Shown: positions 52,457 through 64,000, counted from the first letter of the stretch. The stretch is 64,000 bases of DNA from Rhodospirillales bacterium (GCA_030744625.1 JASLQF010000005.1:8482-72481), one strand, 5' to 3'. Made by a program: numbers and translations. The notes: generated by a model not told the origin, from the sequence alone.

Positions 52457-52897
52457 TCAGGCGCAGCCATCGAAGCCCTCCGCCGCCATCTTGGCCTCAT
52501 AGGGGCCGGCCACATCGGGGCCGGGGGTGAGGGTGGGCTTGACGGCCTCCCAGCCTTCCGGCTTGAGGACGACCAGCCAGCCCTCCACATAGGGGTCCTC
52601 GTTGGCGATGTAGGGCTTGGCGACCAGCGCCTCGTTGATGGCGACGATCTCGCCGCCCACCGCCGACTTGGCGGGGCCCACCCACTTTCCCGATTCGATG
52701 GTGGCGCACGATTTTCCGGGCTTGACGGAACGCCCCGCCTTTTTCGGCGTCACCGCGACCAACTGTCCGGCCAGGGCCGCCGCCACGGCGGTCATGCCGA
52801 CGCGCAGGTTGCCGTCGTCGAGTTCCTGGAACCACATGTGGTTCTCGACATCGTAAATCCGGTCCTCGGGTAGGTTGCAGCCGCGCACCACAGGCAT
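52457..52897 (-). CDS. lbpA: GcvH-like lipoate-binding protein (LbpA type)
   Basis: Track ORF of 146 aa. HMWF...GMT and the lipoyl-Lys context ATIESGKWVGP...GEIVAINEAL. It is adjacent to the hdr genes. Confidence 0.75.
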   Translation of the reverse strand: MPVVRGCNLPEDRIYDVENHMWFQELDDGNLRVGMTAVAAALAGQLVAVTPKKAGRSVKPGKSCATIESGKWVGPAKSAVGGEIVAINEALVAKPYIANEDPYVEGWLVVLKPEGWEAVKPTLTPGPDVAGPYEAKMAAEGFDGCA

Positions 52898-52940
52898 GGT
52901 TTTCCCCTCGATCCACCCGCCGATTGAGGGCCTTTATGGC

Positions 52941-53357
52941 TCAGCCCGCTGCCGCATGCAACGGCTTGGACGAGCAGCAGAATTCGCCGAGCCCCGCCAC
53001 CTCCATCTTGCCGGCGACGAACAGCAAGAGGTGCGTCGCCACCAGGCTGGCCATGACCAGGCGCCGCCGGGCCTCCGGGTGGCTGGGCTCCATGGTAATG
53101 AGATTGTGGTGGTAGACGAGCTCGCGGCAGGTCTCGCGGCAGGCGTTGAAGCTGGGCTCGCCGCGGGCGCCCTGGCGGTGCAGCGCCAACAGCCGGAACC
53201 CCTCGCGCCTTTCCCGCGTCGGCGTCTCGCCGCGCGCCGCCACCCAGTGCTCGAGGATCTCCTCGCCGAGGGCCAGGAGTTCGGCCGCTGCCGAGGCGGC
53301 CTCCGCCGCCTGGGCGAGCTCTTGGATGCGTGTTTCGATGGCGGCGAGGTCTCTCAC
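52941..53357 (-). CDS. Hypothetical 138-aa protein coupled to hdrB2
   Basis: Track ORF of 138 aa. Its GTG start overlaps the hdrB2 stop (GTGA, per track coordinates). Helical N-part, CRETC (Cx3C) and a C-terminal FCCSSKP. No family recognised. Confidence 0.5.
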   Translation of the reverse strand: MRDLAAIETRIQELAQAAEAASAAAELLALGEEILEHWVAARGETPTRERREGFRLLALHRQGARGEPSFNACRETCRELVYHHNLITMEPSHPEARRRLVMASLVATHLLLFVAGKMEVAGLGEFCCSSKPLHAAAG

Positions 53358-54280
53358 GCCAACCCCTTTTCCTTGAGGAATCCGATCGAGTCGGAAATGT
53401 TCTCGTGCACGCCCACCTTGCGCGGCTTGAGCCCCAGCGCCAGGCCGAGGAGCTGGGTGAAGTAGAGAACCTTCACGGTGGTCTTGACGCCGAGCATCTT
53501 CTCGGCGCGCACCTGGTGCATCTCAAGCCCGGTGTGGCAGGTCGGACATTCGGTGGCGATCACCTCGGCGCCGGCGGCCTCCGCCGTTTGCAGCAGGTTG
53601 AGGACGAGCTTGGTCGAGATGTCGGAATCCGACAACGTGTGCGCCCCGCCGCAACACGCGGTCTTCAGGGGATAGTCGACGTTTACGGCGCCCGCCGCGG
53701 CGAGCAGGTCGTCCATGAAGTGGGGCTGGGAAGTGGATTCGCTGCCCGCGCCCTGGTCCTTCTCCGGGAAGATGTGGCGTGGGCGGGTGTACATGCAGCC
53801 ATAGTAGTTGGCGACGCGCAGGCCCTTTAGCGAGTTCTTGACGCGCTCCCCGAGGCCGTCCTCGCCGATCGCCTCCTTGATCCAATCGAGGGCGTGAATG
53901 GTCTCCAGGTTCCCCGCCTGGTAGGCGGCGTGGCCGGCCGCCTCGGACAGCTTGCCGACCACATCGCGGCTCTCCTGGTCGTCGGCGAGGTCGTATTCCG
54001 CTTTCTTGAGGTTGTGGTAGCAGCCGTTGCACGGTGCCATGACCGCGTCGAAGCCCATCTCTTTGGCGGCGATCGACATGACCCGCGAGGACAGATAGGT
54101 CTGCAGCTTGGGATCGACGTTCTTGACCTCCATGGCGCCGCAGCAGTTCCAGTTCTTGACTTCCACCAGGTCAAGGCCGAGCGCCTTGCCGAGCGCCCTG
54201 GTCGAGCGGTCGTAGGCGTGGCCCGAGCCCTCCAGGGCACAGCCCGGGTAGTAGGCGACCTTTTGATATTTTTGCGCCAT
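53354..54280 (-). CDS. hdrB2: sHdr heterodisulfide-reductase-like subunit B2
   Basis: In-frame ATG at 54278-54280 within track ORF 53354..54850. MAQKYQKVAYYPGC, with two CCG motifs (NWNCCGA, TACCGGA). Confidence 0.8.
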   Translation of the reverse strand: MAQKYQKVAYYPGCALEGSGHAYDRSTRALGKALGLDLVEVKNWNCCGAMEVKNVDPKLQTYLSSRVMSIAAKEMGFDAVMAPCNGCYHNLKKAEYDLADDQESRDVVGKLSEAAGHAAYQAGNLETIHALDWIKEAIGEDGLGERVKNSLKGLRVANYYGCMYTRPRHIFPEKDQGAGSESTSQPHFMDDLLAAAGAVNVDYPLKTACCGGAHTLSDSDISTKLVLNLLQTAEAAGAEVIATECPTCHTGLEMHQVRAEKMLGVKTTVKVLYFTQLLGLALGLKPRKVGVHENISDSIGFLKEKGLA

Positions 54281-54297
54281 GGGTGCCCGCGCCCTTC

Positions 54298-55044
54298 CTA
54301 TTCCGTTGCCTTGTCGACCAGGCCGAGCGCGGCGCGGCGCCGCGCTTCCTCTTCCGCCACGTGCTCGGCGATGGCGGCGCGGGCGCGCCCCCAGCCCCGG
54401 GTGCGCGGCCGCAAGATGGTGAACCATCCCATGGTCATCAACTGCTTGAGGGGCAGGTGGCGGACCATGCGCCTGACCATCTCGACCAGCCATTCCTGGA
54501 CGAGAGGCTGGCTGGTGCGCCGGAAGAAGTCGCGGACGATGCGCCCCTCCTCGATCTTTCCGGTGGCGAACACCTGCTCCGAAAACACTTCGTCGAAGAG
54601 GATGGAAGGCGATTTCGGCCGGTGGCCCTTGAGTTCCAGCCAGTGCGCCGTGGCCTTCATGACCCCTTCCGGCGCCACGTCGCGCGGACACGCGTAGGTG
54701 CACTTGTTGCACGACACGCACTGCCAGATGATGTCGCCGTCGCGCAGCAGCTCCTCTTCCATGCCGATGCGGATCAGGTAGATCCAGTAGCGCGGATTGA
54801 AGTCCTCGTTGACGGCGTAGACCGTGCACGAATTGGTGCACGAGCCGCACTGCCAGCAGCGGTGGATGTGCTCACCCCCGGGCAGCGCCGCGATCTCTTC
54901 CTCGAGGTCCTCGTTGTAGTCGGTGACGACCCGCGATCCGATGAAGGTGCTCCAGTGCCCCGAGACGTCGACGCCGTCGATCTCGAGCTCCTCGTGGACG
55001 TGCAGGTTTTCCGGGCGGATCAGGGATTTTTCGTGAATGGGCAT
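54298..55044 (-). CDS. hdrC2: sHdr heterodisulfide-reductase-like subunit C2
   Basis: Track ORF of 248 aa. CWQCGSCTNSC and CVSCNKCTYACP ferredoxin-type motifs. Confidence 0.8.
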   Translation of the reverse strand: MPIHEKSLIRPENLHVHEELEIDGVDVSGHWSTFIGSRVVTDYNEDLEEEIAALPGGEHIHRCWQCGSCTNSCTVYAVNEDFNPRYWIYLIRIGMEEELLRDGDIIWQCVSCNKCTYACPRDVAPEGVMKATAHWLELKGHRPKSPSILFDEVFSEQVFATGKIEEGRIVRDFFRRTSQPLVQEWLVEMVRRMVRHLPLKQLMTMGWFTILRPRTRGWGRARAAIAEHVAEEEARRRAALGLVDKATE

Positions 55045-55060
55045 GGGTTTGGGGGCGCCG

Positions 55061-55951
55061 TCAGTTCAGGGATTTGGGGTCGTCGAGCCGGCGCGCCTCG
55101 CCGTCCACCGCCTTGAGCCGCGTCCGACCGGAGCGTGGATTGACGCCATCCAGGCCAAGCATGCGGCGCACATGCGCCATGGGGTCCTCGGGCGAGGAAA
55201 AGTCGGCGCGCAGGAAGGCGCCGCCCCGCACCCCGATATAGGCCGCGTAGATCTGCGCCACCAGCAGGTCGGTGTACAAGAGAACGTCGCGGAAAACCCC
55301 GTTGTCGCCGAGGAACTGGCAAAGCTCCTGGCGCAGGACGAGGAAGGTCGCGTAGGTGTCGGGCACGTCGATGATCACGCGGTCGATGTCCTCGGCGTGC
55401 CATATCTCGCGCAGGACGCCGGTGTTGGCGGTGGCGTCCCACACCCACCGGCACATGAGGGGGTAGAGCTCGGGGTCGGTGTAATGAAGGACCTCGGCGG
55501 CCAGATCGTGCACCCAGCGGTGCGCCCGGTCCTTGGGGAAGCGGGCGGTGAAGGCGCGCACCCGAGCGTCGACGGTCGAGGTATCGTGGGCACCCTGCAA
55601 CAACTCGGCGACGGCATCGCGGACCGCCGCGAAGCCGTCGGCTTTGAGGCGCGCGCCGATGCGCCGGCGCACCGGCGCCATGAGGGCGCACAGCGCCAGG
55701 AAGGAGGGCTCGTCCATGCGGCCGGCCCGGCCGTCGGCCAGTATTTCCTGGAACAGCGCGACCTTGTGTCCCAAGGCGCTCACGTAGCGTTCGATGCCGC
55801 CTTCCCCCTCGCTTTGCGCGATCAGGGACTGCATGGCGGCGGTGATCGGCGGGCCACTGAGTTCGAGGACGGGGCGATCCGTCCCGGGGCCGGCGTTTAG
55901 GCCTGGGGGTGGCAATGGGCGGGGCGCCGTTGTCACCGTGGATACCCTCAC
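55061..55951 (-). CDS. Conserved hypothetical protein of hdr loci ('hyp')
   Basis: Track ORF of 296 aa. The GTG start overlaps the hdrA stop (GTGA). It occupies the position between hdrA and hdrC2 as in described sHdr loci. No motif recognised. Confidence 0.6.
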   Translation of the reverse strand: MRVSTVTTAPRPLPPPGLNAGPGTDRPVLELSGPPITAAMQSLIAQSEGEGGIERYVSALGHKVALFQEILADGRAGRMDEPSFLALCALMAPVRRRIGARLKADGFAAVRDAVAELLQGAHDTSTVDARVRAFTARFPKDRAHRWVHDLAAEVLHYTDPELYPLMCRWVWDATANTGVLREIWHAEDIDRVIIDVPDTYATFLVLRQELCQFLGDNGVFRDVLLYTDLLVAQIYAAYIGVRGGAFLRADFSSPEDPMAHVRRMLGLDGVNPRSGRTRLKAVDGEARRLDDPKSLN

Positions 55952-56997
55952 TTGGCCGCCGCCCGCCCACCGTGCAGGAAGGTGTAGGCGGCCATTGCCG
56001 CGGCTTGTGCCTGGGCGATGGAATCGTTGATGGTCTCCGGCCCGGTGGCGGCGCCGGCCACGAAGACGCCGGGTCGTGACGTGGCGCCCATGGCGTCATA
56101 GACGCTGGCCCGTCCGATGTGGCCGTGGGGTTCGAGATCGACGCCGAAGACAGACGACAAGAGCAGGTTGTCGACGTTGGGGTCCATGCCGATGGCGTGC
56201 ACCACCAGGTCGAAGGGAATGGTGATGGGCCGCTTGACCAGCGTGTCCTCGCCCTTGACGATGAGCCGCTCGCCATCCGACGTCACCTCGGCGATGCGCG
56301 CCTTGATGTACTTGACCTTGAATTCCTCCTGGCTCTTCCAATAGTAGAGATCCTCGTTGAGGCCAAAGGTGCGGATGTCCATGTAGTAGATGTAGACGTG
56401 GCACTCGGGCAGTTCCTCGCGGATCTCCATGGCCAGGTTGGAGGCGACGGTGCAACAGATCTTGGAGCACCACTCGCGGCCGATCTGGCGGTCGCGGGAG
56501 CCGACGCAAAGCAAGATGGCGACGCGCTTGGGCTTGCGTCCGTCGGACGGGCAGCGCACGCCGTCTCCGGACGAGAACATCTGCTCGACCTGGGTGGTGG
56601 TCACCACGTCGGCGTGGGTGCCGAAACCCCATTCCGGCTTGTTCACCGAATCGAAGTGGGTGAAGCCGGTGCACAGGATGGCGGCGCCGGCCTCGATCCC
56701 GGAGCCGTCGGTGAGCCGCGCCGTGAAGGCGCCCGCCTCGCCCGAGAACTCCTCGACGCTCGCCCCGGCGCGCACCTCGACGAGGTCGTTGGCGCCGACC
56801 CGTTCGACCATGGCGCCGATGGCGTCCCTGGCCCATTCGCCCGACGGCACCAGCTTGGCGTAGCCGGACAAGATCGGCGCGCCGCCGAGGCGGTCCTCCT
56901 TCTCGACGAGAACGGTCCTCTGGCCGATGGAGGCGAGCGCGTACGCCGCGGTCAAGCCGGCCGGGCCGCCGCCGACGATGAGGGCTGGCTTGCTCAT
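55948..56997 (-). CDS. hdrA: sHdr heterodisulfide-reductase-like subunit A (FAD, 4Fe-4S)
   Basis: In-frame ATG at 56995-56997 within track ORF 55948..57822, overlapping the hdrB1 stop (ATGA). VGGGPAGLTAAYALA and CVGSRD...REWCSKICC. 349 aa with no ferredoxin insert, as in the sHdrA type. Confidence 0.85.
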   Translation of the reverse strand: MSKPALIVGGGPAGLTAAYALASIGQRTVLVEKEDRLGGAPILSGYAKLVPSGEWARDAIGAMVERVGANDLVEVRAGASVEEFSGEAGAFTARLTDGSGIEAGAAILCTGFTHFDSVNKPEWGFGTHADVVTTTQVEQMFSSGDGVRCPSDGRKPKRVAILLCVGSRDRQIGREWCSKICCTVASNLAMEIREELPECHVYIYYMDIRTFGLNEDLYYWKSQEEFKVKYIKARIAEVTSDGERLIVKGEDTLVKRPITIPFDLVVHAIGMDPNVDNLLLSSVFGVDLEPHGHIGRASVYDAMGATSRPGVFVAGAATGPETINDSIAQAQAAAMAAYTFLHGGRAAAK

Positions 56998-58376
56998 TGG
57001 GCGTCGGACTTCTCGATGCGCTCGATGGGCTTGAAGCCGGGTCCCGAGGTGATCATCAAGCGGGGGTCGTAAAGGGTCTCCTGGCGTCCCGCCTCGATGT
57101 CCTTCAGGTAGGCCTCGAACTCCGCCTTCTTGGCCCGCCAGTCGATGCCGAGTTTTTCCATCAGCGTCTCGACGGGCGAGGCGTGCCAGTGGGACTGCAC
57201 GATCTTGTACGGGTGCGCCCCGCACACCAGGGCCGCGAACTGGCAGTCGGCGAGGATGGGAAGTGCCACCTCCTTGCCCGCCGCCTGGCTGATCCACTGG
57301 TTTTTGTCGAGGGTCGTGATGCAGCCCGTGTCGTGGCCGACCATGATGTCGGCGCGCGCCTCCTCGACGGCGACGCGCACCTTGCGGTCGATGGCGAAGG
57401 AGCGCGTGAATTCGCGCTCCGCGATGATGTGGCGGAACCCGAAGCCGCAGCAGTCGTACCAGGTGGAATAGTCGATGACCTGGCAGCCCAGGGACTCCAT
57501 GAGGCCGGTGGACACCGCCAGCCGGTTGCCGTCGAGAATCTCGTCGTCGTAGATGGCGTCCTCGGGCACCATCTTGTAGACGTGGCAGGCCGGATGGATG
57601 GTGGCCCGCACGTCGGCGCAGTCGAACTCCTGGTGATTGGCGATGGCGTTGCGCATCACGTGCACCCACTCGGAGTAGTGGACGATCTCCTCGGGAACCA
57701 GGAGCTTGCCGTCGACCAGCCGCCCCAGCTTGCCGAGAATCTCGGTGACGCGGGCGCGCAGTTCGGGTGAGCGCAGCAGGTATCCCCGCACCTCCTTGTA
57801 GTTGCCGAACGACGTTCCGCAATGCACCAGCGGATAGAAATGGCCGTCGGGCAGGCCCTGGGCGCGGGAGGACACGTAAGCCTGGTGGAAGTTACGCAGG
57901 AACACGGCGACCAGGCTCTCCAGGTTGCCGATGCCGGAGCCATGATAGTTCCACGCCGTGCACGAGGTCTGGTCGGTCTCGTCCAGGTACTCGATGTCCA
58001 TCTTGTTCATGAGCCACAGGAGCGAGGTCGGGTATCCCGGGATGTTGCCGCACTGGCCGCACGATTTGTGGTGCCACAGCCGCCGGGTGGGGATTGTCTT
58101 GTCCCACCCGTAGAGGGTCTTGACCGTTACCGGGTCGTGGCTGTCGGCGACCCGGTGGACGACGATCTCGCCGTCCTTCTCGAGCTGCCACATGATGTCG
58201 CGCACGTCCTCGACGCGGTCCTTGTTGGTAAGCATGGAGCGCTTGTCGACGCGCTGCTCGACCCAGGCGGTGGCGGTGCGCGCCTCGTCGGCGCTGAGGC
58301 CGGCGTCCTTCCACTCGGGTCCGTGTCCGGTGAACTTTTCGCCATCGTTCGTGCCCATGCGATCATCCGTTGCCAT
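56994..58376 (-). CDS. hdrB1: sHdr heterodisulfide-reductase-like subunit B1
   Basis: Track ORF of 460 aa. CCG domain (WYDCCGFGF) plus Cys-rich HHKSCGQCGN. Confidence 0.8.
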   Translation of the reverse strand: MATDDRMGTNDGEKFTGHGPEWKDAGLSADEARTATAWVEQRVDKRSMLTNKDRVEDVRDIMWQLEKDGEIVVHRVADSHDPVTVKTLYGWDKTIPTRRLWHHKSCGQCGNIPGYPTSLLWLMNKMDIEYLDETDQTSCTAWNYHGSGIGNLESLVAVFLRNFHQAYVSSRAQGLPDGHFYPLVHCGTSFGNYKEVRGYLLRSPELRARVTEILGKLGRLVDGKLLVPEEIVHYSEWVHVMRNAIANHQEFDCADVRATIHPACHVYKMVPEDAIYDDEILDGNRLAVSTGLMESLGCQVIDYSTWYDCCGFGFRHIIAEREFTRSFAIDRKVRVAVEEARADIMVGHDTGCITTLDKNQWISQAAGKEVALPILADCQFAALVCGAHPYKIVQSHWHASPVETLMEKLGIDWRAKKAEFEAYLKDIEAGRQETLYDPRLMITSGPGFKPIERIEKSDAQ

Positions 58377-58380
58377 GTTC

Positions 58381-59142
58381 TCAATCCTCCTCGTCGTCGT
58401 CCGCCTCGTCCTGTTCCTCGAGCCAGTCCTCGTAGTCCTCGCGCTTCTCGTCGATGATGTCGGTGATTACGTCAAAGAGGTTCTCGTCGATGCCCTCGAG
58501 CCGGTCGAGGACGCCGGTCATTTCCCAGATGGTGTAGAGTTCGATGGAGGTCTTCAGGTTGACCTCCCACGCTGTCTCCGTGGTGTTGAGGGTCGGCACG
58601 GGGATGGCCTTGCGCAGGATGTCGAGCGGTGCGTCCACCTTCGAGATGTTGGGCCCCCAATCAGGGAAATGGTCGGGGGTGACCATGTCGGGCGCCAGCT
58701 GGTTGCCCGTCGAGATCAGCTTCAGCATGACCCGGCTGAAAGGGCGCAGAACGTTCTTGGCCGATTCCATGCCGTGCTTGATGGCCGCCTCGCGCATGAT
58801 CATGATGAGCCCGCCCGGGGAATTGCCGAACGGGCAGCGCGCGGCGCAGGTGTAGCACTGGGCGCAGGCCCAGATTTTCTCCTGCATGGCGTCGTGGATG
58901 CCTTCCAGGTTTTCGGTCCACAGGAGCTGTACGATTTCGCGCGGCGAGAAGTCGAAATAATAGGCCGCCGGGCAGGTCGCCGTGCAGATGCCGCAGTTGA
59001 GACAGCCGTTCAGTTCGTGGTCGTAGCGGGCGTCTTTCTGGATGTCCTGGAATATGTCTTCCAGGTCTTGGCGCGGCATCGCCGGTGCGTCCGAAACCGG
59101 ATCGCCGATGTGTTCCTGAACCCTGGTGCCCGTGCCGTGCAA
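58381..59142 (-). CDS. hdrC1: sHdr heterodisulfide-reductase-like subunit C1
   Basis: Track ORF of 253 aa from a TTG start; an alternative ATG lies 21 codons in. CLNCGICTATCP and CAQCYTCAARCP motifs. Strongly acidic C-terminal tail EEQDEADDDEED. Confidence 0.8.
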   Translation of the reverse strand: MHGTGTRVQEHIGDPVSDAPAMPRQDLEDIFQDIQKDARYDHELNGCLNCGICTATCPAAYYFDFSPREIVQLLWTENLEGIHDAMQEKIWACAQCYTCAARCPFGNSPGGLIMIMREAAIKHGMESAKNVLRPFSRVMLKLISTGNQLAPDMVTPDHFPDWGPNISKVDAPLDILRKAIPVPTLNTTETAWEVNLKTSIELYTIWEMTGVLDRLEGIDENLFDVITDIIDEKREDYEDWLEEQDEADDDEED

Positions 59143-59154
59143 GGTGCACCGCCC

Positions 59155-59532
59155 CTAGTAGGTGAGGACCTTGCAGTCCCCCTCCATGACTTCCTCGATC
59201 ACGTAGGCGCCGCCGACGATGCCCGAGCATTCGGGGATCAGGTCGTCCTCGGTCATGTCGAAAAGGTCGAGATTGGGGGAGCAGCAAGAGAACTTGACGC
59301 CGGCCTCGTGGGCATCCTTGATAAATTCGTAGACCGACTTATCGGAGCCTTCCTTGACGAAAAGATTTTCGGCGACGCCTTTTTTCATCAACTGGCCGGC
59401 GGCGGCGGTGCACACCACCTCGACCTCGTATTCCATTGCCGCCGCCACGGACGCCTGAAAGAACGGCGCCCCCAGCTCCTCCCCATTGCGGGGATCGGTA
59501 TTCACCAGGATCATCAGCAGCTTATCCGCCAT
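59155..59532 (-). CDS. dsrE: DsrE/DsrF-family sulfur-relay protein
   Basis: Track ORF 59155..59586, with an in-frame ATG at 59530-59532 (MADKLLMILVNTDP). 125 aa, with Cys pair FSCCSPN. Confidence 0.7.
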   Translation of the reverse strand: MADKLLMILVNTDPRNGEELGAPFFQASVAAAMEYEVEVVCTAAAGQLMKKGVAENLFVKEGSDKSVYEFIKDAHEAGVKFSCCSPNLDLFDMTEDDLIPECSGIVGGAYVIEEVMEGDCKVLTY

Positions 59533-59616
59533 CGATGCCTCGCCCCGTACTATGAGTGGAAACCCGGGCCCCAATCCCGCAAGCAAACACCAGGCCGGCG
59601 CGTTTGGTTAAGCCCG

Positions 59617-59670
59617 GTTTCGAATATTAGAGTTTCCTAAAATAAAAGTCAATATTAATAAAATACCAAC
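59617..59670. promoter_or_regulatory. AT-rich divergent control block with two AATATT palindromes
   Basis: Hand count gives 11 G+C in the 50 nt 59621-59670, against very GC-rich flanks. AATATT occurs at 59623-59628 and 59651-59656, 28 bp apart. It lies between dsrE-hdr (minus) and ubiD-like (plus). Confidence 0.4.
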
Positions 59671-59844
59671 GCAATCATCGGGCGTTTTCGTGATCTGGAC
59701 GCGCGCCCATCTCGGCGGGCGAAACTTGCGTGCGCCCGAGCGCTGTTGCCAAGGCGGCGAAGGCGTGAACATTATCGCGCCAGCCGGAGAGCCGCGCCCG
59801 CTTCGAGCGTCGTTGCGCGGGCCGGACGATGAGGGAGGAACCAG

Positions 59845-61293
59845 ATGCCTTTCGAGAGCCTGCGCCCCTATCTCGACGCGCTCGAGAAGAACGGCGTGTT
59901 CAAGTGGGTCGATCGCGAAGTCGACAAGGACTGGGAGATTAGCTGCGTCGGGCGCATGCTGTTCCGTGCCATGCCCGAGGAACGCCGCATCGGCATTGGC
60001 TTCAACAACATCAAGGATTTCCCCGGAAGCCGCGTCGTCGCCGGCGTCATCGCCGCCTCCGAGCCGATGGTGGCCACGGCGCTGGAGTGCGACGCCAATG
60101 CGGCGGCCATCCACGAGCGCCTGATCCGAGGCCTCACCGACCCCATCGATCCGGTGATGGTGGAGGACGGCCCCTGCAAGGAGGTCATCCTCGGCCCCGC
60201 CGACGCCGACCTGGGCGCGATCCCCGCCCCCATATGGACGCCGAGCAAGGACGCCGGCCCCTACCTGACGCCGCTGTGGGTGACCAAGGACCCGGACAGC
60301 GGCCGACGCAACATCGGCATCCGCCGCTGCCAGATCAAGGGCCGCGACAAGACGGGCATCCTGTTCGGCGCCCCCGACCGCGGCGGCGCCATCCATCACG
60401 AGAAGTGGAAGAGCCTCGGCAAGCCGATGCCGGCGGCCATCTTCATCGGCGGCGATCCCGTGCAGTACATTGTGGCGCCGTCGCGCTACGGCCCCGACGA
60501 ACTCAGCGTGGCCGGCGGCGTGCGCGGCGAGGCCATCGAACTCGTCAAGTGCGAGACCGTCGATCTCGAGGTCCCGGCCACCGCCGAAATCGTCATCGAG
60601 GGCGAGGTGTCGACCGATTATACCGAGCCCGAGGGCCCCTTCGGCGAGTTCACCGGCTACATGGCCGGCGGGCGCCAAGGCCCGGTGTTCACGGTCAAGT
60701 GCATCACGCATCGCAAGGACCCCATCGTGCTCGGCGTGATCAGCCAGTTCCCGCCCAGCGAGAGCAGCATGATCAAGCGCATCCTCTTGGAAGCGAGCCT
60801 GCTCAAGCACGTCGGCCAGGACCTCAACATCCCCGGCGTCGTCGACATCCACGCCCTGGAGGCGGGCGGCTGCACGGCGACGCTGTGGGTCAGCATCAAG
60901 AAGATGTACACCGGCCACGTCGATCAGGTGGTGTTCGGCATCCTCGGCTATTTCGGGATGAGCTACTACAAATGGATCATCGTCACCGATGATGCCGTCG
61001 ACATCCGCGATCCCTTCATGCGCGACTGGATCATGGCCTGGCACGTGCAACCCGACCGCGACATCCGCATCCTTGCCAACACCGCCGCCGTCGAACTCGA
61101 CCCGTCGGGCTATCCCCCCGACGAGAACCCGGACGAAAGGCTGGGCGGCAAGGTCATCATCGACGCCACCAGGAAGTTCGATTTCCCCGACCTCTCGCTG
61201 CCGCCCATGCAGTACATGAAGCGCGTCGTCGACAGCTGGGACGACTACGGCCTACCGCCGCTTGATGAGCTTAAATTGCCCAAGAATGTCTGA
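59845..61293 (+). CDS. UbiD-family (prFMN-dependent) decarboxylase/carboxylase
   Basis: Track ORF of 482 aa. LRPYLDALEK start, RNIGIRRCQ, and EGPFGEFTGYMAG catalytic-Glu loop. Confidence 0.85.
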   Translation: MPFESLRPYLDALEKNGVFKWVDREVDKDWEISCVGRMLFRAMPEERRIGIGFNNIKDFPGSRVVAGVIAASEPMVATALECDANAAAIHERLIRGLTDPIDPVMVEDGPCKEVILGPADADLGAIPAPIWTPSKDAGPYLTPLWVTKDPDSGRRNIGIRRCQIKGRDKTGILFGAPDRGGAIHHEKWKSLGKPMPAAIFIGGDPVQYIVAPSRYGPDELSVAGGVRGEAIELVKCETVDLEVPATAEIVIEGEVSTDYTEPEGPFGEFTGYMAGGRQGPVFTVKCITHRKDPIVLGVISQFPPSESSMIKRILLEASLLKHVGQDLNIPGVVDIHALEAGGCTATLWVSIKKMYTGHVDQVVFGILGYFGMSYYKWIIVTDDAVDIRDPFMRDWIMAWHVQPDRDIRILANTAAVELDPSGYPPDENPDERLGGKVIIDATRKFDFPDLSLPPMQYMKRVVDSWDDYGLPPLDELKLPKNV

Positions 61294-61307
61294 GGCGCGC
61301 CGCGCCT

Positions 61308-62882
61308 TCACGCCGCGGCGTTCTCCTTGGTCCACATATCCCTGAGATCGCGGCGCAGCACCTTGCCGCGGGCGCTCTTGGGAAGGGCGTCGACGAAGTG
61401 GAACGCCTTGGGCACCTTGAAGGCGGCGAGGAGCTTCGCGCAGTGGCTTTCGATGTCGTCGGCGGTTAGGCGCTCTCCCGGCTTGGCCACCACGTAGCAC
61501 ACGATCTCCTCGCCGTAGATGGGATCGGGGACGCCGACCGCCGCCGCCTCCGCCACCTTGGGGTGCGTCATCAGGGCGTTGTCGATCTCCAGGGGCGCGA
61601 TGTTGACGCCGCCCCGGATGATCAGGTCCTTGGAGCGCCCCGTTACGCGCACGAAGCCCTCGGCGTCCATCACCGCCAGATCGCCGGTCTTGAGCCGTGC
61701 CCCGACGTGGTCCTCGTACTCGCCCTCCGGCGAGATGGTGGCCATGCACGCCTGCGGCCCGCCCACCGTCACCTCGCCCTCGACGCCGGGCGGACAGGCA
61801 TAGCCGGCGCCGTCGACGATCAGGAACTGCTGGTACTTCGCCGGCATGCCGACGGTTCCCGGCATTCTGTTGTAGTGGCGGTTGCCGCACACCCATCCAC
61901 CCTCCGAGTAGCCGTAGAGAGGCAGCAGCCTGACCCCGTACATCTCCTCGAAACGCCGCCACTGCTCGGGGCTGATCGGCGCCGTCGAGCACGTCATGTA
62001 GCGCAAGCTCGGGATGTCCTCGGCGGTGATGCCGAGGGGCTCGTTGAGCAGCATGTTGATGACCGTCGGCACGCCGGCCGCGAAGGTGATGCCGTGGTCC
62101 TTGATCCAGTCGAAGAAGCGGCTGCGCGAGAAACGCCGTGCCATGTGCAGGCTCAGCCCGAGCTCGAGCATGGGCATGAGACTGAGGATCTGGGGCGAGT
62201 TCCAGCTGAAGGAGCGGTAATCGAGGGTGCGGTCATCGGCGGTCAGTCCGATGAAGTCGATGGAGTTCTGTCCGTTCAGCCAAAAGGCCCGGTGGGTGGA
62301 GATGAGGGACTTCGGCGTCGCCGTGGTTCCCGAGGTCGAATGGATGGCGGCGATCTGCTCGGCGTCGTTCTCGATGTCGAGTTCGGGTGCCGCCGCGACC
62401 CCGGCGAGCGCCCTGAACAGCTCGTCGGCGGGCGCGTCGTCGACCGCCGGCCAGCGCGCCACCATGATCTTGTCGACGTCGATTTCCGAGGTCAGCCCCG
62501 GCCCGTCGACCTCCTCGTGCCAGAGGATCAGCTTGGGCTCGATGTGGCCGAGCAAACGGTTCATGTGGGCGGCGTTCATCTCGACGTTGGTCGGGCACAC
62601 CACGGCGCCGAGCCGCCAGATGCCGAGCCAGCAGATCAGCTTCTCCAGGTTTTCGTCGGACAACAGCGCCACCCGGTCGCCCTTGCGGATACCGCGATCG
62701 TAAAGGAAGCGCGCCATGCGGTTGGCGATGTCGTGGAGCTCTCCCCAGGTGACCCCCTTGTCCTGGTCGAGGTCGTGAATCGCCGTCTTGGCGGGGTGGC
62801 GGTCCCTGTATTTGATCAAGAGCGAGCGGACGGTTTCGAACGGCAACTCCGGCTCCGGGTACGGCTCGCCTAGGAGCACCAT
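61308..62882 (-). CDS. AMP-forming acyl-CoA ligase (adenylate-forming superfamily)
   Basis: Track ORF of 524 aa. HSTSGTTATPK (A3), TGDLAVMDAEGFVRVTGRSKDLIIRGG, and a C-terminal KSARGKVLRR. Confidence 0.85.
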   Translation of the reverse strand: MVLLGEPYPEPELPFETVRSLLIKYRDRHPAKTAIHDLDQDKGVTWGELHDIANRMARFLYDRGIRKGDRVALLSDENLEKLICWLGIWRLGAVVCPTNVEMNAAHMNRLLGHIEPKLILWHEEVDGPGLTSEIDVDKIMVARWPAVDDAPADELFRALAGVAAAPELDIENDAEQIAAIHSTSGTTATPKSLISTHRAFWLNGQNSIDFIGLTADDRTLDYRSFSWNSPQILSLMPMLELGLSLHMARRFSRSRFFDWIKDHGITFAAGVPTVINMLLNEPLGITAEDIPSLRYMTCSTAPISPEQWRRFEEMYGVRLLPLYGYSEGGWVCGNRHYNRMPGTVGMPAKYQQFLIVDGAGYACPPGVEGEVTVGGPQACMATISPEGEYEDHVGARLKTGDLAVMDAEGFVRVTGRSKDLIIRGGVNIAPLEIDNALMTHPKVAEAAAVGVPDPIYGEEIVCYVVAKPGERLTADDIESHCAKLLAAFKVPKAFHFVDALPKSARGKVLRRDLRDMWTKENAAA

Positions 62883-62901
62883 GGTTTTCCTCCTCGGCGC
62901 T

Positions 62902-64000
62902 TCAGTGGCCGGTGCGGGCTAGCGTGCGCGCCCAGTTGGTCATGCGTGCCTTGGCGTTGTCGATGTCCTCTTTGCCGAAGAACTTCTCCGGCGACACCTT
63001 GTCGATCGGATACTTGGGACGCATGAAGTCCTTCTCGTAGCCGAAGGGCACCGTGGCGTCGATGGCGAGGCCCCCCTCGAAGCGGGTGTTGGACGCCGTC
63101 CACGCGCCTTCCCCCGCCGTCATCCGTTCCGACGGCATGAAGGTCTGCCCGCGCCCCCCGGGCAGCGGGTTGAGGAGGTCGGAGAGCGGATTGACCCGCG
63201 TCGTGATGCACCACATGATGTCGTCCATGTCGTAGGCATCGGTGTCTTCGGACACCGCGATGCACAGGCGCATGCCCTGCGACGTGGACAGCAGCGCCGT
63301 CATGAAGTTGCGCTGCCAGCCCTCGTCCAGCTTGTTGCGTTTCTTCACCTGGATGACGGCACCGCCCCAATCGGTCATGCAGTAGGGGATGTTCACGTCC
63401 TGGACGATGCCCGGCTGCAATCGCCGGCACACCTCGTACATGGCCGCCTCGCGGATGGCCGTATCCATGTTGTGTTCGTCCAGGGTGTGCGGGCTGAGCA
63501 CGTGGACGATCGGCCTGGAGGCCGGCTCGCGCATGGTCACCGCGGTGACGTGGAGGGTCGGCGCCTTGTAGGCCTTGCCCATGTAGCCGGCCCACTCGGG
63601 GTGGAAGTGGGTTTTCCCCTGGACGCCGGCTTCCTCCGCCTCGGCCGTCTCGTAGCGGCGGTCACGGGCATCCACGTAGCCCTCGAGCACGATTTCCGAA
63701 TCGGCGATCGCCATGGCGTCCACCGTGCGCGCCTTGACCAGGCGCACGGGCGCGCCTTGCGCCGCCCCGGCGACCCCGATCTCGTCGCACCCGTGGGGCA
63801 GGATGATGTAATCGAAGGCCGCCCCGGCCAAGAGCGTGCACGCCGGCGGCACGCCGAAGCACATGGTGATGGGCACCGGCTTGTCGTCCTCGTAGTGCTT
63901 GGAGACCACCTGCCACATGTGCGAGCCCGGGGAGATCTGGAAGGTGCCGACGTTGCCCCAACGGAAGTTCATGCGGTTGTAGCCGAGATCGGACCCGCCG
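62902..64000 (-). CDS. Second UbiD-family decarboxylase (5' end outside window)
   Basis: Track ORF 62902..63972. The frame stays open upstream to 64000 (...GGSDLGYNRMNFRW), so the listed Met is internal. It has the UbiD C-terminal architecture and an HPEWAGYMG loop equivalent to GEFTGY. Confidence 0.7.
   Translation of the reverse strand, partial: GGSDLGYNRMNFRWGNVGTFQISPGSHMWQVVSKHYEDDKPVPITMCFGVPPACTLLAGAAFDYIILPHGCDEIGVAGAAQGAPVRLVKARTVDAMAIADSEIVLEGYVDARDRRYETAEAEEAGVQGKTHFHPEWAGYMGKAYKAPTLHVTAVTMREPASRPIVHVLSPHTLDEHNMDTAIREAAMYEVCRRLQPGIVQDVNIPYCMTDWGGAVIQVKKRNKLDEGWQRNFMTALLSTSQGMRLCIAVSEDTDAYDMDDIMWCITTRVNPLSDLLNPLPGGRGQTFMPSERMTAGEGAWTASNTRFEGGLAIDATVPFGYEKDFMRPKYPIDKVSPEKFFGKEDIDNAKARMTNWARTLARTGH

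Follow-up and report, generated by a model that had tools for sequence, protein, structure and literature searches.

A candidate phthalate-CoA ligase beside a phthaloyl-CoA decarboxylase ortholog in an uncultured Rhodospirillales-type bacterium

Near the end of a 64,000-nucleotide stretch of DNA from a Rhodospirillales bacterium (G000:C5:8482-72481, hereafter the window), a gene for an AMP-forming acyl-coenzyme A (CoA) ligase is flanked by two genes of the UbiD family, which raises the question of what acid this locus would activate and decarboxylate, and whether all three genes take part. An earlier note made from the DNA alone (the sequence-only reading) had proposed CoA activation followed by decarboxylation of an aromatic dicarboxylate and had left the substrate open. 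The core of that proposal stands for one of the two UbiD proteins, UbiD-2 (P0004), which is orthologous to phthaloyl-CoA decarboxylase (PCD) itself, and hence the substrate is now most probably o-phthalate. We consider it quite probable that UbiD-2 and the ligase (P0002) are encoded by a two-gene operon that starts o-phthalate catabolism in a CoA-dependent and oxygen-independent manner. o-Phthalate is the core of the phthalate-ester plasticizers.

The assignment of UbiD-2 is carried by its similarity to PCDs of solved structure. In a search of all PDB sequences, residues 8-529 aligned with residues 4-526 of PCD entry 8pmk at 842 bits, and the PCD entries 8oz5/8p02 followed at 838 bits, whereas the next family, protocatechuate decarboxylase AroY, reached 161 bits and ferulic acid decarboxylase ~75 bits. 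The loop HFHPEWAGYMGKAYKAP of UbiD-2 is identical in the alignment with 8pmk, so far as the residue-level comparison can be read from the printed alignment, and the PCD-type loop HFHPEWAGY stands in place of the EGPFGE/D of other family members. Within it, H298, P299, E300, W301, G303, and Y304 are invariant across 13 PCD homologs from several phyla. The PCD encoded on plasmid 2 of Aromatoleum aromaticum EbN1, a denitrifier among those that served to establish the phthaloyl-CoA pathway (PMC13040137), shares 66.9% (tblastn) or 65.4% (global) identity with UbiD-2; its gene follows ubiX, and EbN1 is the only named, cultured source of PCD in the collections. In a tree of the eight UbiD paralogs of the genome, EbN1 proteins and E. 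coli UbiD, with EbN1 PCD and E. coli UbiD as its few named references, UbiD-2 and EbN1 PCD share an 11-row clade with 100% support in the Shimodaira-Hasegawa-like approximate likelihood ratio test and a long stem branch of 1.88. Judged by these comparisons, UbiD-2 is an ortholog of PCD, and decarboxylase activity is predicted for it.

The genes and sites on which the argument draws are the following, with coordinates counted from the first letter of the window:

59845-61293, plus strand: UbiD-1 (P0001), 482 amino acids, with the Pfam domains UbiD_N, UbiD, and UbiD_C and a canonical E-x4-E loop.
61308-62882, minus strand: AMP-forming acyl-CoA ligase (P0002), a candidate phthalate-CoA ligase of 524 amino acids, with the Pfam domains AMP-binding and AMP-binding_C.
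62902-64000 in the window, minus strand: UbiD-2 (P0004), the PCD ortholog, represented by its last 365 codons, with the Pfam domains UbiD and UbiD_C on the window part.
62883-62901, minus strand: spacer of 19 nucleotides between the PCD and ligase genes, with a GGAGG ribosome-binding site 7 nucleotides before the ligase ATG, as read from the sequence.
59746-59775 (L002 4228-4257), plus strand: promoter-like site TTGCCA-18-CATTAT, ~70 nucleotides upstream of UbiD-1, a consensus match only.
60936-64000 and on to 64486, no strand assigned: DNA block in common with the unrelated metagenome contig L025, with 87.8% identity over 3551 bp (blastn).

The three open reading frames (ORFs) lie where the sequence-only reading had put them, as ORF calls and Pfam domains agree, and the loops that it had quoted, EGPFGEFTGY for UbiD-1 and FHPEWAGYMG for UbiD-2, are both present in the sequence. 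UbiD-1 and the ligase gene are indeed convergent, with 14 nucleotides between their stop codons, and the gap of 19 nucleotides between UbiD-2 and the ligase gene is exact. The description of UbiD-2 as a second, distinct paralog is borne out by its identity of only 30% to UbiD-1, but the copy in the window is open at its 5' end; inspection beyond position 64000 extends the gene to coordinate 64494 (G000:C5:71383-72975) and the protein to 530 amino acids, with UbiD_N, UbiD, and UbiD_C at 54.6, 114.5, and 74.7 bits, all above the Pfam cut-offs. The contig ends 2568 bases past the window, and the host assembly amounts to 3.2 Mb and is 88%-complete. Third-position G+C is 0.91-0.92 in all three genes, similar to that of their neighbors. 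The short spacer with its GGAGG motif suggests that UbiD-2 and the ligase gene are co-transcribed as an operon.

The ligase scores 219 bits for AMP-binding and 84 bits for AMP-binding_C, which places it in the class I adenylate-forming fold. Its three closest relatives among those examined each directly follow a PCD gene of 525-530 amino acids, in the same order as here, at 93% (same-genus assembly GCA_002998485.1), 83% (L025), and 66% identity. In a ligase tree, P0002 falls into a clade of nine rows with 100% support, some of whose members are PCD-adjacent. At E <= 1e-60 no relative of the ligase was found in the same-order genome G014, and in the same-genus genome G001 neither the ligase (E <= 1e-60) nor UbiD-1 was matched, but there the contig ends inside PCD, so that these two negatives are no sign of absence.

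A PCD requires prenylated flavin mononucleotide (prFMN), and the genome holds both a source of this cofactor and outlets for the expected product. The statement that ubiX is missing from the window holds, and the genome search called for by the sequence-only reading located a single UbiX on contig C45 (G000:C45:1374-1913), unlinked to the PCD-ligase pair; it scores 242 bits for TIGR00421, whose cut-off is 108.9. BoxB, the epoxidase component of the aerobic benzoyl-CoA route, is encoded with 836 bits and is adjoined by a BoxC-sized ORF of the enoyl-CoA hydratase family, and the anaerobic route is represented by the ring-opening hydrolase Oah (667 bits) and benzoyl-CoA reductase subunit C (687 bits); BoxB, Oah, and the reductase subunit all exceed their curated cut-offs, and the genes lie at G000:C11:6931-8334 and G000:C44:151485-154516. 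The absence of a prFMN synthase, which would have spoken against the pairing of UbiD-2 and ligase, is thus not what the genome shows, and benzoyl-CoA pathway genes are present besides. Since genes of both types are present, benzoyl-CoA would have an outlet under either regime, and the combination of boxB with benzoyl-CoA reductase subunit C and Oah suggests that the host is a facultative degrader of aromatic compounds. An aerobic hybrid use of PCD and the box pathway has reportedly been described for denitrifiers, to go by the title of a report.

As a separate observation, the genome contains eight UbiD-family genes and one ubiX (contigs C20, C39, C10, C19, C12, C41, and C5; loci L004-L011). 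The UbiD encoded on C20 is of the ubiquinone type (664 bits, NF008175), and the other five outside the window match the generic UbiD model only.

In the sequence of events that we favor, the AMP-forming ligase would use ATP and CoA to turn phthalate into phthaloyl-CoA, a labile thioester, which the prFMN-dependent PCD would decarboxylate at once to benzoyl-CoA, using prFMN supplied by the single, unlinked UbiX of the genome. From there, benzoyl-CoA would be channeled into the aerobic epoxide (box) route or into that of the ATP-dependent benzoyl-CoA reductase. Phthaloyl-CoA is described as short-lived, so that it must be captured by abundant PCD (PMC13040137). Most likely this is a known type of pathway, the ligase-type conversion of phthalate to benzoyl-CoA, in a new host, and not a new mechanism.

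How PCD homologs are accompanied elsewhere was surveyed in the best 80 PCD loci (L039-L118) out of at least 593 matched species-representative genomes. A ligase 57-60% identical to P0002 lies directly upstream of PCD in 13 of the 80 loci, and a second type of ligase (~40% identity to P0002, ~50% to the L013 ligase) accompanies it in ~38, mostly on the opposite strand; an AMP-forming ligase thus stands beside PCD in ~51 loci, compared with a pair of CoA-transferase genes in nine. Contig L013 carries an AMP-binding ligase gene, then PCD, then a gene for a transporter of the major facilitator superfamily, and the three groups of PCD-linked ligases form separate clades in the ligase tree. In L012 the order is UbiD, UbiX, an ORF of 70 amino acids, two family III CoA-transferase genes and PCD, and in G014 PCD is followed by two CoA-transferase genes. 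Accounts of the pathway describe two routes to phthaloyl-CoA, a succinyl-CoA-dependent transferase in denitrifiers and, as they relay it, an ATP-dependent ligase in Desulfosarcina cetonica (PMC13040137, PMC9516798), and the transferase and ligase contexts of the PCD homologs correspond to these two activation solutions of denitrifiers and sulfate reducers.

Relatives of PCD with 70-77% identity were matched in at least 593 species-level genomes from many phyla; the groups represented include Alphaproteobacteria, Binatia, and Acidobacteriota, and many of the genomes are metagenome-assembled ones of soil Xanthobacteraceae and other Alphaproteobacteria. Closer to the host the distribution is patchy, with PCD in three of the 41 genomes searched from the order and in 11 of the 401 searched from the class, this genome included in both counts. 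Such patchiness fits the transposon-flanked, horizontally moving pht genes known from earlier work (PMC8269228).

A different clade of UbiD proteins was also seen near PCD. Its members (475-504 amino acids) share ~50% identity among themselves and ~32% with UbiD-1, and lie within a few kb of PCD in unrelated genomes at ~10 of the 80 loci (e.g., L089, L093, L109, and L116); they further occur in the phthalate cluster of EbN1 plasmid 2 (L119 11832-13346), in L012 (5232-6716 and 1703-3160), and in L025 (3582-5009).

Several points weigh against the favored reading. No NCBIfam model reaches its cut-off for the ligase, so that its specificity is not readable from sequence and its substrate is inferred from context. 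Ligase paralogs at ~60-64% identity stand away from PCD in other genomes, including PCD-bearing ones, which implies that the wider family has other substrates and leaves only the near clade in support of the phthalate assignment. There is no transporter, regulator, or ubiX gene within the PCD-ligase block and no promoter-like site in the 90-nucleotide spacer before PCD, and a literature search returned no enzyme assay for P0004 or any alphaproteobacterial PCD homolog. With PCD relatives spread over at least 593 species genomes, the natural substrate could be some compound other than phthalate. It is accordingly conceivable, though we consider it unlikely, that the PCD-like enzyme and the ligase serve another, possibly natural, substrate, such as a substituted phthalate, a different isomer of phthalate, or some other 1,2-dicarboxylated acid, be it aromatic or alicyclic, with o-phthalate turned over at most as a side activity. 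So broad a distribution would be surprising for an enzyme serving a man-made compound, ligases of at least three clades are paired with PCD, and the nearest paralogs of P0002 outside its own clade are not found beside PCD. However, UbiD-2 shares 65-67% full-length identity and an identical active-site loop with characterized PCDs, and published practice accepts 74-85% identity to reference PCDs as PCD (PMC8269228). The isophthalate system, in turn, relies on a PaaK-type ligase of ~49 kDa and a different UbiD clade (PMC9516798), unlike the 524-amino-acid ligase found here.

With o-phthalate retained as the preferred substrate of the UbiD-2-ligase pair, the place of UbiD-1 has to be considered. 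UbiD-1 exceeds the cut-off of the generic model TIGR00148 only (264.6 against 244.85) and falls below the equivalog cut-offs for VdcC (261 against 650) and UbiD (179.5 against 788). Its best solved relatives are HmfF (PDB 6h6v/6h6x) at 195 bits and E. coli UbiD at 176 bits (35% global identity), and it does not qualify as a member of the known free-acid UbiD decarboxylases (UbiD, VdcC, AroY, HmfF, Fdc1, and phenylphosphate carboxylase). Its EGPFGE loop corresponds to the Glu-Arg-Glu/Asp network of the UbiD family (PMC5818171). In the tree it stands in a clade of its own with 100% support, composed of 482-amino-acid proteins at 65-74% identity from Acidobacteria, Alphaproteobacteria, and others, none of which is specifically named. 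The genes found around clade members differ, being alcohol dehydrogenase and acyl-CoA dehydrogenase genes in one context, a DctP gene in another, and another UbiD with a molybdenum hydroxylase in a third. In L120 (4029-9449), a 74%-identical homolog is divergent to a tripartite ATP-independent periplasmic (TRAP) transporter operon, DctPQM, ending in a gene for a UbiX-like flavoprotein, after which genes for a Rieske/VanA-type oxygenase, a short-chain dehydrogenase/reductase, and an RraA-like protein follow; this locus currently offers the strongest clue to what class of substrate the clade uses. The TRAP transporter genes in two of the contexts hint that a free acid is imported, and UbiD-1 probably acts on a free aromatic acid.

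The claim of the sequence-only reading that both UbiD genes flanking the ligase belong to one module is not supported by these comparisons. If all three genes did serve one pathway, UbiD-1 might, for instance, make phthalate from a tricarboxylate or another precursor, or take as its substrate another CoA ester that the ligase produces. The trio is adjacent in the same-genus assembly GCA_002998485.1, and two other contigs carry UbiD-1 relatives of 90-92% identity next to ligase DNA, one of them, which also has transposases, with UbiD-1 intact beside a fragmented ligase gene, so that the three genes have traveled together at least briefly. We nevertheless regard a three-gene module as very unlikely, as UbiD-1 runs on the strand opposite to the pair, has an AT-rich promoter region to itself, and forms a separate clade. 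In L025 it is reduced to a remnant of 118 amino acids (92% identity) beside intact PCD and ligase genes. In the 80 other PCD loci no ortholog of UbiD-1 was found up to 8 kb from PCD, the best match having 41% identity, and none was found in 400 genomes of the class, 10 of them with PCD, at E <= 1e-150. Relatives of 69-74% identity occur in unrelated contexts, twice beside a gene for a TRAP solute-binding protein. Given that no ortholog lies near PCD in the 80 loci, UbiD-1 is probably a mere neighbor, picked up with the cassette and outside the phthalate module; it would be a separate decarboxylase with a promoter region of its own.

The idea of a cassette comes from the block shared with L025 (60936-64486), which comprises PCD, the ligase gene, and the last 358 bp of UbiD-1; blastn returned no other match, and in L025 the PCD-ligase block adjoins rve and DDE transposase genes. 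From this similarity the PCD-ligase cassette looks to have been moved by recent horizontal transfer. On one side of the trio, the genes at 52457-59586 encode a GcvH-like LbpA, Fer4/CCG Hdr-like proteins, and DsrE, i.e., an sHdr-LbpA sulfur-oxidation locus. On the other side, upstream of PCD, genes for a GATase-like protein and a lipoate-protein ligase extend over 64585-66385 (L002 9067-10867) in an order that matches slpl(AB)-lipX of Hyphomicrobium denitrificans (PMC10332631). The GATase-like gene was considered as a part of the phthalate block and rejected, as it follows slpl(AB) in the way that lipX does in H. denitrificans. GCA_002998485.1 lacks the shdr genes and retains only a short DsrE-like ORF on one flank; on the opposite flank, both this assembly and G001 carry lipX fragments. 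Most likely, PCD-ligase and UbiD-1 split the sHdr/lipoate locus in two by insertion, the mobile pair having landed, on this model, between slpl(AB)-lipX and the dsrE-shdr genes, and the link between the block and this locus is positional, not functional. That the UbiD and ligase proteins serve the sHdr/lipoate system, e.g., in the synthesis or trimming of a precursor for an acyl cofactor, is barely credible, for although PCD and ligase follow slpl(AB)-lipX directly on the same strand with no promoter-like site between them and dsrE-shdr adjoins, GCA_002998485.1 keeps PCD, ligase, and UbiD-1 intact without shdr genes, PCD-ligase pairs elsewhere have no sHdr neighbors, and genes of this kind are absent from the reference sHdr/lipoate clusters (PMC10332631).

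Between dsrE and UbiD-1, the divergent and AT-rich spacer (59587-59844) contains promoter-like hexamer pairs on both strands (59746-59775 on the plus and 59652-59624 on the minus strand). Promoter-like sites in the 6.4-kb scan numbered four, with 0.9 expected from shuffled sequences.

For the phthalate pathway, what these results offer is a specific, testable prediction for two genes whose sole annotations are "UbiD family decarboxylase" and "AMP-binding protein." If the prediction is true, an uncultured sulfur-oxidizing bacterium of the Rhodospirillales type funnels o-phthalate to benzoyl-CoA without oxygenases and degrades it with or without oxygen. The literature search found no paper on a phthalate UbiD together with a CoA ligase in Alphaproteobacteria, which is no proof of novelty. 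The ligase-type PCD neighborhood was the commonest among the 80 loci examined, although this version of the pathway has so far been characterized only in a sulfate reducer, and the finding is useful for interpreting metagenomes from plastic-polluted sites. A further-reaching version, which we put forward tentatively and consider doubtful as a whole, is that the ligase stands for a clade of phthalate-CoA ligases recruited independently, that such PCD-ligase cassettes have been transposed among many soil and marine Alphaproteobacteria, and that UbiD-1 founds a new clade of free-acid aromatic decarboxylases that supplies the same host pathways with a related acid. Were independent recruitment and transposition true, either CoA-dependent phthalate turnover would be far commoner in oxic or micro-oxic habitats than the few models from denitrifiers and sulfate reducers suggest, or a natural phthalate-like substrate would drive the spread.

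Among known systems, UbiD-2 is closest to the PCD of denitrifying Betaproteobacteria (8pmk, 8oz5/8p02, and EbN1), with which it has in common a length of ~525-530 amino acids, three UbiD domains, and the HFHPEWAGY loop, where another residue takes the first Glu position of the usual E-x4-E motif. The denitrifier enzyme needs prFMN made by UbiX and yields benzoyl-CoA, and the same is predicted for UbiD-2, which differs in its identity of ~65-67%, in an uncultured Rhodospirillales-type alphaproteobacterium as host, and in an unlinked ubiX. In place of the succinyl-CoA:phthalate CoA-transferase pair of denitrifiers, activation here would be carried out by the AMP-forming ligase. In this respect the locus resembles the sulfate reducer Desulfosarcina cetonica, in which a ligase is likewise followed by a UbiD-type decarboxylase according to the descriptions of that system relayed from Geiger et al. 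(2019) (PMC13040137, PMC9516798), whereas here boxB, an aerobic gene, and a class I benzoyl-CoA reductase gene lie downstream in the pathway. The isophthalate system of Syntrophorhabdus aromaticivorans likewise combines a CoA ligase with a UbiD-family decarboxylase acting on a phthalate isomer (PMC9516798), but its ligase is of the PaaK type (~49 kDa) and its decarboxylase is near subunit C of phenolic acid decarboxylase, and neither resembles P0002 or P0004. UbiD-1, finally, shares the UbiD fold and the canonical EGPFGE loop with the 2,5-furandicarboxylate decarboxylase HmfF and with E. coli UbiD, but at only 195 and 176 bits, respectively, and within a clade of its own at 100% support.

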